Below, in pieces: positions 21,845-57,122 of a stretch of 64,000 nucleotides of DNA. The position numbers and the translations under genes were made by a program. Every line of letters starts with the position of its first letter. Position 1 is the stretch's first letter. The notes below the pieces were generated by a model, which saw nothing but the letters and a program-made list of their open reading frames with translations, was not told the origin of the DNA and searched no databases. Source of the stretch: an uncultured archaeon. GTDB taxonomy: Archaea > Iainarchaeota > Iainarchaeia > Iainarchaeales > VGJJ01. The stretch spans positions 124,125 to 188,124 of the forward strand of contig CAYRUV010000001.1 of assembly GCA_964427715.1 (NCBI GenBank), read 5' to 3'.

Positions 21845-21947
21845 GTTCTCAACTCCTAGAATTAGATGTTACAATAAATATATCGGACATACGATATTAA
21901 AAGTGGGTTGGAAAATCTCGAAAAATAACCCTAGAAAAATAGACGAG

Positions 21948-22021
21948 TGCACCGGAGAGGATTTGAACCTCTGACCTCCCGATTATCAGTCGGGTGCTCT
22001 ACCAGGCTAAGCTACCAGTGC
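21948..22021 (-). tRNA. tRNA-Ile(GAT)
   Basis: Cloverleaf GCACTGG/CCGGTGC-A, anticodon arm CCCGA-CT GAT AA-TCGGG, T loop TTCAAAT; no intron, no CCA. Confidence 0.95.
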
Positions 22022-22048
22022 AACCTTTTGCGAAAAGGTTGATCAAAA
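22021..22048. repeat. CTTTT-N3/4-AAAAG hairpin element, copy A (abuts the tRNA-Ile 5' end)
   Basis: CAACCTTTT-GCG-AAAAGGTTG perfect 9-bp stem followed by ATCAAAA. Confidence 0.65.
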
Positions 22049-22156
22049 GCGTTAGAATCCCCTACGGGAATTCAGACTCTCCTAATCCCTTTTTGCTTCC
22101 AAGAAAACGGCCTCCGAATCCTTTTAAAGGGCACCTTGCGGGGGCGGTCCTATAAT

Positions 22157-40013: not shown

Positions 40014-40987
40014 CACGTTCCGCTAGAGGGCCAGACTTGGTAGGCGAATTGAGGAGTTCCACTCTCAGGGTCATAATATCCGCCGCCCGTAAGAGGGGAT
40101 TCTTTCTCCCATATTTCTCGGCAGTTGAATGCAAATCCACACCCTGTGCAGAATGACTTTTTCCGGCACACTTTATCGATGCCATCGAATTGGGCGCTTT
40201 CTTTCGTGATTAAATCTCTCTGGCAGAGCTGGGCGTTGATTCCTGTGAGGACCAATTCGTGTGTCTCCTCATCAAACCCTCCTCCTTCAGAGTGGGCCTT
40301 CAGGATGAGCTGGAATGTTCCAATGGTGGTGAGGGAAAGAGACACGTTCACGTTCTGGGAATCTCCCGATTCGAGGGAAGGGATGGTGGTTTCTATTTTT
40401 TGGATCTCAATGGGTTTATTCTTCCCCGCGACGATTTGGTTTTGTAGGAGTGTTGCGGTGAAGATAACATTCTCCGCCTCCACTCCTCCGATGTTGTGGA
40501 TGGTGGTCTGGATGGGGTATTCGGTGGTTCCTTGCAGGGCGAATGGACTCGTTGCGAGGGTGTTTTCCATTTCCAATTGCGCGGGTTCTTTTCCGATGTA
40601 AAGTATACACGCGTGCAGCTCGTTGAGCGTCTCGCACCTTGCGGAGAGGGTGGTTTTGATTCCCTGGTTAATTCGGATGCGATCCCCTGTGACGGAGAGG
40701 GAATAGGGGCATGATTCAAGAGAGGGGCAGCAGTTCTCTCCTGAGCAGGCGAAGGATACGTTGCGCGTGGTCGCATCGAGGTTACGAGCGTAAATCGTGT
40801 CGCCTTCTTTCAAAGTAAGAGTGACCGACGAGGTTTTTCCTAGGGATGCTTGGGCCTCCAACAATAATGCGGGGGCGTGCTTCGCAAGGGCCGTTTGGGG
40901 GGTGAAAAATGAGGCGAAGTTAAAGAAAAAAACCCCTATCAGGGCGATGGCCACAATGGCCACGAGGAGAAGATTGAACACGTTCAT
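40010..40987 (-). CDS. membrane-anchored CARDB/Ig-like Cys-rich surface protein
   Basis: N-terminal TM; TTIHNIGGVEAENV, IPSLESGDSQNV; several Cys pairs; ATGA start at 40987. Confidence 0.7.
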   Translation of the reverse strand: MNVFNLLLVAIVAIALIGVFFFNFASFFTPQTALAKHAPALLLEAQASLGKTSSVTLTLKEGDTIYARNLDATTRNVSFACSGENCCPSLESCPYSLSVTGDRIRINQGIKTTLSARCETLNELHACILYIGKEPAQLEMENTLATSPFALQGTTEYPIQTTIHNIGGVEAENVIFTATLLQNQIVAGKNKPIEIQKIETTIPSLESGDSQNVNVSLSLTTIGTFQLILKAHSEGGGFDEETHELVLTGINAQLCQRDLITKESAQFDGIDKVCRKKSFCTGCGFAFNCREIWEKESPLTGGGYYDPESGTPQFAYQVWPSSGTC

Positions 40988-52652: not shown

Positions 52653-52712
52653 GGGTCAGACGTGAGTTAATTCATCATCCTTGCGTCAGTCGGGGTTTAC
52701 GTCATCATTCCC
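52653..52712 (-). ncRNA. box C/D guide sRNA
   Basis: GGGA-ATGATGA(C)-CGTAAACCCCGA-CTGA(D')-CGCAAGG-ATGATGA(C')-ATTAACTCACGT-CTGA(D)-CCC: four perfect boxes, two 12-nt guides, terminal stem. Confidence 0.9.
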
Positions 52713-52742: not shown

Positions 52743-53039
52743 CTAATCAAATGGGCGCGTGACCGAAACATAGGATAGGATGGCGGCCAGGGAGAGGTTC
52801 ACAATCAATGCGGCGGCGAGGATGGGTTTGAACTCGCTGAAGGCTTGAGCGTTGTATTGGAGCGTCTCGAGCATGGTGGATAGGCAGTATGCGAAGGCCT
52901 GGAGCATTCCAAACGAGAGGATAATCCAATAGGCACGGCTCTCTCCCGCGTGGGGAATCGATTTCCATGCGAATCGGAACGCGAAGAGGAATGCCACGGC
53001 TCCAATGGCATCCATGATAGGGATGAGGTCATACATCAT
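52743..53039 (-). CDS. small 3-TM membrane protein
   Basis: Three hydrophobic helices; 1-nt overlap with the upstream 3-TM gene. Confidence 0.6.
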   Translation of the reverse strand: MMYDLIPIMDAIGAVAFLFAFRFAWKSIPHAGESRAYWIILSFGMLQAFAYCLSTMLETLQYNAQAFSEFKPILAAALIVNLSLAAILSYVSVTRPFD

Positions 53040-53344
53040 TATTTCTCCCTCGATAATCGTTCCATTTTCTTGCGCATGAACTGTTGTCCTTCATAGTTGC
53101 GCTGGGTCCAATACAGGAAGAGGACTCCTCCTCCTAGAATTCCGACGAGGTGATAGAGAATGTGAAAGGACTCGTTCCAGGTCATCAGCCAGATGTTTTG
53201 GGAAATGATTCCTATCACAATGGCGGTGAATCCGAAAAAGAATATTTTGGATGAGCGGGAGGCTCGATAATCCAGGATAGCCGGGATATACCCTAGCACC
53301 GCGAAGAGCAATACCAATAATTCCGCGAAGGGAAGGGGGTTCAT
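53039..53344 (-). CDS. small 3-TM membrane protein
   Basis: Three hydrophobic helices, basic tail; TTTTTTATA promoter upstream. Confidence 0.6.
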   Translation of the reverse strand: MNPLPFAELLVLLFAVLGYIPAILDYRASRSSKIFFFGFTAIVIGIISQNIWLMTWNESFHILYHLVGILGGGVLFLYWTQRNYEGQQFMRKKMERLSREK

Positions 53345-53402
53345 CTTTTCATCCAGCGAATCGACCTATAAAAAAGTGTTCCATTCCAATTCAAAAAAAT
53401 GA

Positions 53403-53455
53403 ATGCGCGGGGCAGGATAGGTACCGGCCTTTTGTCAAAAGCCCCTGGAAAAGGA
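53403..53455 (-). repeat. duplicated tRNA-Leu(CAG) 3' end plus hairpin element copy C
   Basis: 53403-53418 matches 53461-53476 at 15/16 nt; the spacer holds CCTTTT-GTC-AAAAG. Confidence 0.7.
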
Positions 53456-53461
53456 ATTCCA

Positions 53462-53545
53462 TGCACGGGGCAGGATTTGAACCTACGAAGGCACTAAGCC
53501 ACCAGGACCTGAACCTGGCCCCTTAGACCGCTTGGGTACCCGTGC
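53462..53545 (-). tRNA. tRNA-Leu(CAG)
   Basis: GCACGGG/CCCGTGC-A; CCAGG-TT CAG GT-CCTGG; long variable arm. Confidence 0.95.
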
Positions 53546-57036: not shown

Positions 57037-57060
57037 TTGTGGAATGAGCAAATCCATTTA

Positions 57061-57122
57061 GCTTTTTTTTCGGTCGAGCCTTTTCTCTAAAAGGGTCGGT
57101 TCCGATTCTGCCCGGGCCTATT
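57061..57122 (+). repeat. hairpin element copy D plus duplicated tRNA-Val 3' end
   Basis: TCTGCCCGGGCCTATT at 57023-57038 repeated exactly at 57107-57122; CCTTTT-CTCT-AAAAGG at 57079-57094. Confidence 0.75.

Follow-up and report, generated by a model that had tools for sequence, protein, structure and literature searches.

A hairpin insert and a duplicated tRNA 3' end behind tRNA-Leu(CAG) of an Iainarchaeales archaeon probably reflect a small element with a long target duplication

The tRNA-Leu(CAG) gene of an uncultured archaeon of the order Iainarchaeales has its 3' end repeated a short distance downstream of the gene, with a small hairpin between the two copies, and the closest relative has the same locus without the hairpin and with one copy of the repeat. 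We think that this arrangement was probably produced by a small hairpin element that inserts non-autonomously, duplicates an unusually long stretch of its target, and would be moved by a putative agent acting in trans. The host genome (G000) amounts to ~0.9 Mb in 19 contigs and is 85.6% complete. Coordinates refer to the window, the 64,000-nucleotide stretch of one contig that was analysed, and the parts of the element at tRNA-Leu(CAG) are read on the minus strand.

The tRNA-Leu(CAG) gene (53462..53545, minus strand) is complete, lacks an encoded CCA, and was identified by ARAGORN and by the Rfam tRNA model at 52.4 bits. Its last 15 bases (tRNA positions 59-73) together with the first trailer base make up the proximal 16-nt repeat, ATCCTGCCCCGTGCAT (53461..53476, minus strand), which extends from A59 of the T-loop through the discriminator and one base beyond. 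The distal repeat (53403..53418, minus strand) is identical at 15 of 16 positions, and a search of the window with up to 3 mismatches returned these two matches in total (53476-53461 and 53418-53403). The sole difference is a T to C change at 53407. Since this C would create an A.C mismatch with acceptor position 3, the distal copy appears to be free of tRNA constraint. The proximal copy pairs perfectly in the acceptor stem, and the cloverleaf present in the predicted minimum-energy fold takes this copy.

Between the two copies lie 42 nt (53419-53460), which begin with an 8-nt filler, TTTT, and CC, continue with an imperfect hairpin, and end with GG and a 5-nt linker. The filler, GGAATTCC (53453..53460, minus strand), is the variable part between the tRNA end and the T-run. 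The remainder belongs to a recurrent module that we call M (53419..53454, minus strand), with its T-run at 53449-53452, the CC, a stem-loop at 53426-53445 that contains a conserved G.G mismatch, and the linker at 53419-53423. M at this locus matched the covariance model R1 with 41 bits (E 6e-9), while its DNA fold was predicted at -7.2 kcal/mol (z -1.67). The original prediction had recognized both the duplicated tRNA end and a hairpin between the copies, and both are borne out; the 58 bp that it gave as the distance is the start-to-start spacing, and the insert itself is 42 nt long. Beyond the distal copy is a run of seven T (T7; 53393..53399, minus strand), presumed to be the original tRNA terminator, followed by a 101-aa open reading frame (53039..53344, minus strand) that has no Pfam match, carries its own TATA-like box, and is syntenic in relatives, marking a conserved flank. 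Weak matches to archaeal C/D-box sRNA families (sR11, snoPyro_CD, sR9, and sR12; 19-23 bits, below the gathering scores) were also recorded at 52653-52712 (minus strand).

Comparing the locus across relatives, as had been proposed, yielded an exact empty allele. In the closest genome, G011, whose flanks are ~92% identical, an identical tRNA-Leu(CAG) is followed directly by the T7 flank, and the locus is 58 bp shorter. An independent metagenome contig from run X4 joins 53402 to 53461 and skips the same 58 bp; this comparison used contigs, and those of runs X2 and X3 did not cover the insert. We located the syntenic Leu-CAG loci of other genomes through the neighbouring RNase HII gene and found them empty in G011 and in three distant genomes, with a decayed unit in one intermediate genome (L095). 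Given this decayed unit, the difference may represent either a gain in the G000 lineage or slippage between the 16-nt repeats that removed the unit from G011. The intergenic flanks of G000 and G011 differ by 3 changes in 58 nt, and the one mismatch in the 16-nt copy would fit either history.

Similar units were found behind Arg, Leu, Ser, Gln, Lys, and Ala tRNAs of the genus, forming a multi-copy family whose occupancy differs between close relatives. The tRNA-Ser(GCT) locus is filled in G011, with a 40-nt unit and a 16-nt repeat, and is empty in G000; a unit behind tRNA-Arg(CCG) is present in G011 and G001 and missing from G000; and the layout behind tRNA-Leu(CAA) is the same in at least five genomes of the genus. 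In G003, units are arrayed, with three behind tRNA-Ser(TGA) and two behind tRNA-Gln(CTG). Decay is greatest in the outermost copies of these arrays, which suggests that new units are added beside the working tRNA.

Across the whole G000 genome, a copy of the tRNA's own 3'-end 14-mer (at most 2 mismatches) occurred within 150 nt downstream of 5 of the 43 tRNA genes (Leu-CAG, Val-CAC, Leu-CAA, Leu-GAG, and Ala-TGC) and upstream of none. When downstream regions were reassigned among tRNAs as a permutation control, the mean was 0.47 and the maximum 3. Similar matches arising by chance near tRNAs had been named as grounds for abandoning the duplication; in the shuffling test the flanking repeats at Leu-CAG had a p of about 0. 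Lys-TTT has a 14/17 copy, bringing the tRNA genes that share the layout to at least 6 of 43, and Arg-CCT is a seventh, with M and a decayed copy. The common layout consists of filler, T-run, the M hairpin, a 5-7 nt linker that is often T-loop-like with one extra base, a 13-20 nt copy of the tRNA's own end, and the native T-run. The filler slot varies from 0 to ~80 nt across units and often holds two hairpins (H1 and H2). Units behind tRNA genes have a single orientation, and their tRNA copies run from T-loop position 57-59 to position 73 plus 0-2 bases, mostly 16-18 nt in total, with perfect identity over 15-20 nt at several loci other than Leu-CAG and with distal copies at other loci that are more decayed. 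A sister unit within the window, behind tRNA-Val(CAC) (57037..57122, plus strand), has a 29-nt filler, a T-run, an M at 57066-57104 that belongs to the second of the two subfamilies in G000, and 16 nt that repeat the tRNA-Val end without a mismatch.

Within the M hairpins there are runs of T and of A, and a G.G or G.A mismatch is conserved. Stem positions alternate between G-C and A-T on both sides, with 95% of cells paired and 3 pairs changed on both sides; the covariation score was reached by 0 of 500 shuffles, a result that should be interpreted with caution as the structure was derived from these very sequences. No Rfam family matched the insert or the trailer hairpins. Covariance model R1 had 19 matches in G000 at E <=1, between 9 and 60 in five genomes of the genus at E <=0.01 (60 in G003), and, across the order, matches in 42 of 121 genomes at E <=1e-5. 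In addition to tRNA 3' ends, M was found behind protein genes, in tandem arrays free of tRNAs, inside the loops of other M copies, and inside tRNA introns in either orientation.

The repeats that flank M follow the target. At four tRNA loci of G003, M is 0.89-1.00 identical, while the adjacent tRNA-specific copies are 0.47-0.88 alike, and the same M stands beside Ser, Leu, and other tRNA cores and beside protein-gene ends, so that it is not tied to one target. M also lies between direct repeats of local sequence at non-tRNA sites, where the repeats measure 13, 18, 33, and possibly 9 nt. The 13-nt repeat (12/13) includes the stop codon of a protein gene and is present in G000 and G011. In four more distant genomes of the genus with that protein gene, both M and the repeat are absent, which points to a gain at the stop codon. 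The 18-nt repeat (17/18) is located within the end of a coding region; its insert consists of two trailer hairpins and M and adds a new tail to the protein. The 33-nt repeat (29/33), which surrounds M in a different family of the order, has a p of about 0, and the 9-nt repeat, in a further family, is weaker (p of about 0.005). A repeat that is made from the target and varies in length marks a target-site duplication and not a recombinase core that travels with an element. From these alignments, the repeat looks like the target-site duplication of a small element family.

The original prediction had read the locus as the attL/attR of a tRNA-targeting integrative element. As an integrase scar, the locus would go back to a virus or plasmid with an integrase that brought along a tRNA end of its own, integrated at the T-loop to 3' end of tRNA-Leu, and subsequently lost all of its cargo, leaving attL and attR 42 bp apart. 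What stands is the geometry of an insertion at a tRNA 3' end with a duplicated target; we consider a degraded integrative element unlikely. The geometry agrees with a T-loop class of integrase sites, reportedly set out by Williams in 2002, and the genus does harbour true integrative elements, as 11 different tRNAs are immediately followed by tyrosine integrases of 420-500 aa. At tRNA-Met in G005 and G001, elements of this kind stand in tandem (~9-10 kb; L057 and L069 on G005:C9, L062 and L067 on G001:C14), separated by 13-17 nt copies of the tRNA end, and each opens with a tyrosine integrase right behind the tRNA or a copy. A third segment at tRNA-Met lacks an integrase and encodes an AAA_14/DUF4143 ATPase and a MazF/RHH pair. 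One attR arm of an integrase element also resembles a T-arm to which one base has been added. The island of G005 is bordered on its outside by an M-plus-copy unit, beyond all three segments, the outermost of which lacks an integrase and encodes an AAA ATPase and a MazF-type toxin pair. Because the M unit is located outside all three segments, it was most likely there first.

Several observations count against an integrase scar. Near-identical M modules adjoin different tRNA-specific copies, the non-tRNA sites have unrelated duplications of 13-33 nt, and all units measure 40-~115 nt with no trace of cargo. The right arms of the integrase elements share another motif and lack M. A 58-bp duplex circle would be too stiff to serve as a recombination substrate. 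The statement that no integrase is present proved correct, as PF00589 had no match in the window and a single Xer-type gene, on another contig, in G000; an Xer-type enzyme is the sole recombinase of both G000 and G011. Viral contigs in IMG/VR returned no match to two M patterns. The search for the proposed att core in the same collection, using the T-arm and end of tRNA-Leu, returned a sole match on one unrelated viral contig, where the match is tRNA-like and lies beside three tRNA genes. Fragments of tRNA genes left behind by kilobase-scale integrations have been described (PMC9897764); our literature searches retrieved these and casposons, and found no hairpin mini-inserts of the M type.

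A different possibility is that M is a host regulatory module, a terminator, insulator, or promoter that is kept around tRNAs, and that the copy is a by-product of recombination, such as conversion from the Leu-CAA locus, or a small transcribed fragment. The shared layout behind Leu-CAA across the genus is consistent with this idea, as is the position of M at mature tRNA 5' ends. M adjoins the first base of four complete G000 tRNAs (Ile-GAT, Ala-GGC, Ser-GGA, and Leu-GAG), none of which has another TATA-like box within 70 nt. At tRNA-Ile(GAT) (21947-22021), M occupies 22016-22050 on the minus strand, the upstream gene is divergent, and the sole other TATA-like box is ~90 nt away; the remaining three tRNAs are located on other contigs. 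The M T-run precedes the four tRNA starts by ~24-36 nt, the distance expected of an archaeal TATA box, suggesting that M may act as a promoter too. T-runs on both strands would suit a two-way terminator, and judging from sequence features, M may be a putative tRNA promoter and two-way terminator. Its occurrence in 42 of 121 genomes, the compensatory changes in its stem, and its abutment on tRNA 5' ends fit a host function as well as selfish spread.

One further locus bears on the same idea. In G087, tRNA-Pro(GGG) is split after the anticodon loop by ~100 nt that contain T-runs and a sense-oriented M and are bounded by the complementary 7-mers CAACAAC and GTTGTTG (L115; G087:C60:20300-20950), as if the 3' half had its own promoter. 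This arrangement could be either a long intron or an adjacent split tRNA with its own promoter for the 3' half.

We nonetheless regard a host module as an improbable source of the duplication. The Leu-CAG insert matches the genome's own Leu-CAA unit at 30/42 positions and subfamily-1 units at other tRNAs in several genomes at 29-32 of 42-44. It is no nearer to the Leu-CAA unit than to units elsewhere, and copying from this paralogue is therefore not indicated; conversion from Leu-CAA was set aside as unsupported by similarity. The proximal copy is of the Leu-CAG type, distal copies decay, M occurs in both orientations within introns, and the duplications at protein-gene ends are left unexplained by a host module. 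Slippage on the native trailer, or a simple local tandem duplication, was likewise rejected, because the filler behind the first copy is unlike the trailer behind the second.

Introns in the T-loop of tRNA genes are known from archaea of the Thermoproteales, and the distal copy, which is co-linear with the tRNA and in the same sense, might serve as an alternative 3' exon, with the sequence from the first copy to the linker spliced out as a T-loop intron. This seems very improbable, as the tRNA is already perfect with the proximal copy, the distal one would introduce an A.C mismatch at Leu-CAG and has decayed further at other loci, a T-run stands between the copies, and the predicted fold uses the proximal copy with no bulge-helix-bulge. 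Chance similarity, in favour of which there is the shortness of the repeat and nothing beyond, has a negligible probability given the window search, the permutation and shuffle tests, and a layout that recurs at many tRNAs.

In the explanation that we favour, a mobile hairpin element, the 58 bp by which G000 exceeds the empty allele would correspond to one protein-less hairpin insertion plus its target duplication. The element would be M itself, comprising the T-run, an imperfect palindrome of ~20-30 nt with internal T/A runs, and a short right end. The target may have been opened by a pair of nicks, in the T-loop and immediately beyond the discriminator, with a stagger of ~16 nt, and fill-in would then have produced the two copies. 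The proximal copy would keep the tRNA whole while the T-run of the element substitutes for the displaced terminator, which would account for the tolerance of such insertions, and the distal copy would decay afterwards. The inserting agent would act in trans.

We searched for enzymes that could supply this activity. Cas1 (PF01867) was absent from G000, at 85.6% completeness, and from 15 of 16 other genomes of the genus, and present in one. Y1 transposases of the IS200-like type (PF01797) were absent from G000, G011, and G003, the last of which has 60 M matches, reverse transcriptases (PF00078) were found in 0 of 5 genomes, and no integron integrase (TIGR02249) exceeded the family cut-off in 41 genomes. 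DDE_Tnp_1 occurs in G001 and G003 only and does not track the element. None of the enzymes sought (Cas1, tyrosine recombinases, Y1, reverse transcriptase, DDE_Tnp_1, and integron integrase) tracks the element, and no known enzyme among them accounts for the insertions. The unit junctions are variable on the left and precise on the right, with a T-loop-like right end, and are unlike a standard transposase product. The left filler of 0-80 nt and the termini, which are not inverted repeats, count against an ordinary cut-and-paste transposon. The right end (GGTTCTG-like) mimics a T-loop with an extra base, which hints at a homology-guided or site-specific step.

Among known systems, casposons and the spacer integration of Cas1-Cas2 share several features with M units. 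The casposon of Aciduliprofundum boonei resides at tRNA-Pro and is mobilized by a Cas1 casposase (PMC5137440). Insertion occurs by the T-arm palindrome of a tRNA with a duplication of ~15 bp, a placement and length that M units resemble in part. Short DNA can be inserted, and successive integrations should line up in tandem with the most recent one beside the tRNA, as seems to hold for the M arrays. However, the A. boonei duplication overlaps the tRNA by 5 bp only, whereas that of M units covers positions 58/59 to 73, lies inside the tRNA, and measures 13-20 nt at tRNAs and 9-33 nt elsewhere. M units also lack terminal inverted repeats and polB, and Cas1 is missing from G000 and most of the genus. 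Tyrosine-integrase elements at T-loop to 3' end sites of tRNAs, and their cargo-less, cis-mobilisable derivatives, similarly repeat the tRNA 3' end directly, occur in tandem arrays, and leave the proximal tRNA intact, but M units have neither integrase nor cargo, do not carry the core, and use non-tRNA targets too.

Like MITEs and REP sequences, M is small, protein-less, palindromic, multi-copy, and intergenic, has genome-specific subfamilies, and is at times nested or arrayed; it is non-coding, and its presence varies between relatives, a MITE-like trait. Unlike them, it has an internal rather than a terminal palindrome, a left filler of 0-80 nt, a duplication of 9-33 nt that is longer and more variable than the usual 2-10 bp, and an orientation fixed relative to the target gene, while the Y1 partner of a REP/RAYT system is absent from G000, G003, and G011. 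Integron attC sites and CALIN arrays resemble M in the folded imperfect palindrome, the conserved mismatch, the variable loop, the conservation of structure over sequence, the existence of arrays without an integrase, and the entry of new units at one fixed end. However, M is ~30 nt long against at least 55 nt for attC, its boxes are only loosely like the R''/R' boxes, integron recombination makes no target duplication, and no integron integrase was found in the 41 genomes. A SINE-like, target-primed retroelement is at odds with the lack of a reverse transcriptase in 5 genomes.

We also have a broader proposal, which we put forward tentatively and think somewhat doubtful. DPANN archaea of this order may have an undescribed route of DNA insertion that places a ~36-nt T-run-plus-hairpin at gene 3' ends, above all at tRNA T-loops, with a ruler-like stagger of ~16 nt at tRNAs and 9-33 nt elsewhere. 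Such insertion could be carried out by an integrase acting in trans that resembles Cas1 or a casposase in its action but belongs to neither, or by a hairpin-guided template switch during replication or repair. If true, the unit arrays next to tRNAs would be comparable to leader-proximal CRISPR growth, in a Cas-free form. The 3' ends of tRNA genes are classic landing sites of viruses, plasmids, and casposons, and the M footprint appears at them without cargo or a visible enzyme, in genomes of ~1 Mb thought to have been stripped of mobile DNA. A new mechanism would bear on how long-stagger integrases such as Cas1 choose palindromes, on the spread of terminator and promoter hairpins around RNA genes, and, for DPANN archaea, on how split and intron-bearing tRNA genes arose. 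The decaying spare copies would be fossils of former tRNA ends, and they can mislead both tRNA annotation and the prediction of integrated elements from att sites.

Several other loci of the order contained related structures. A tRNA missed by ARAGORN (L107; G054:C14:53600-54250) has a seeming intron with an antisense M, together with an M unit whose 19-nt copy matches the tRNA 3' end perfectly, indicating that the layout exists in another family of the order. Also in another family, tRNA-Leu(TAG) is followed by a ~150-nt tandem duplication (L032; G036:C4, ~1565-1790) that starts in the T-loop, takes in ~60 nt of trailer, and is identical over at least 58 nt. Arrays free of tRNAs in G003 (L072 and L074) and G001 (L081) contain four to six M hairpins with a period of ~45-50 nt, and some of their hairpin elements are nested three deep. 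At L076 (G015:C1:199600-200200), three tandem 85-nt repeats have three hairpins each, the last of which is M-like. The loop of an M in G011 (L125; G011:C1, ~40650-40760) is split by a 47-nt palindromic insert; its counterpart lies behind the same protein gene in G000 (G000:C3:93166-93201), and a related insert interrupts M in G003 (L074). Two hairpins are conserved at the start of many tRNA trailers in relatives within the genus (L071, L010, L021, and L078), the first T-arm-like with a GTTYCG-like loop and the second GC-rich with 9-10 bp. The pair appears to be a second repeat family, since it is found behind different tRNAs of one genome.
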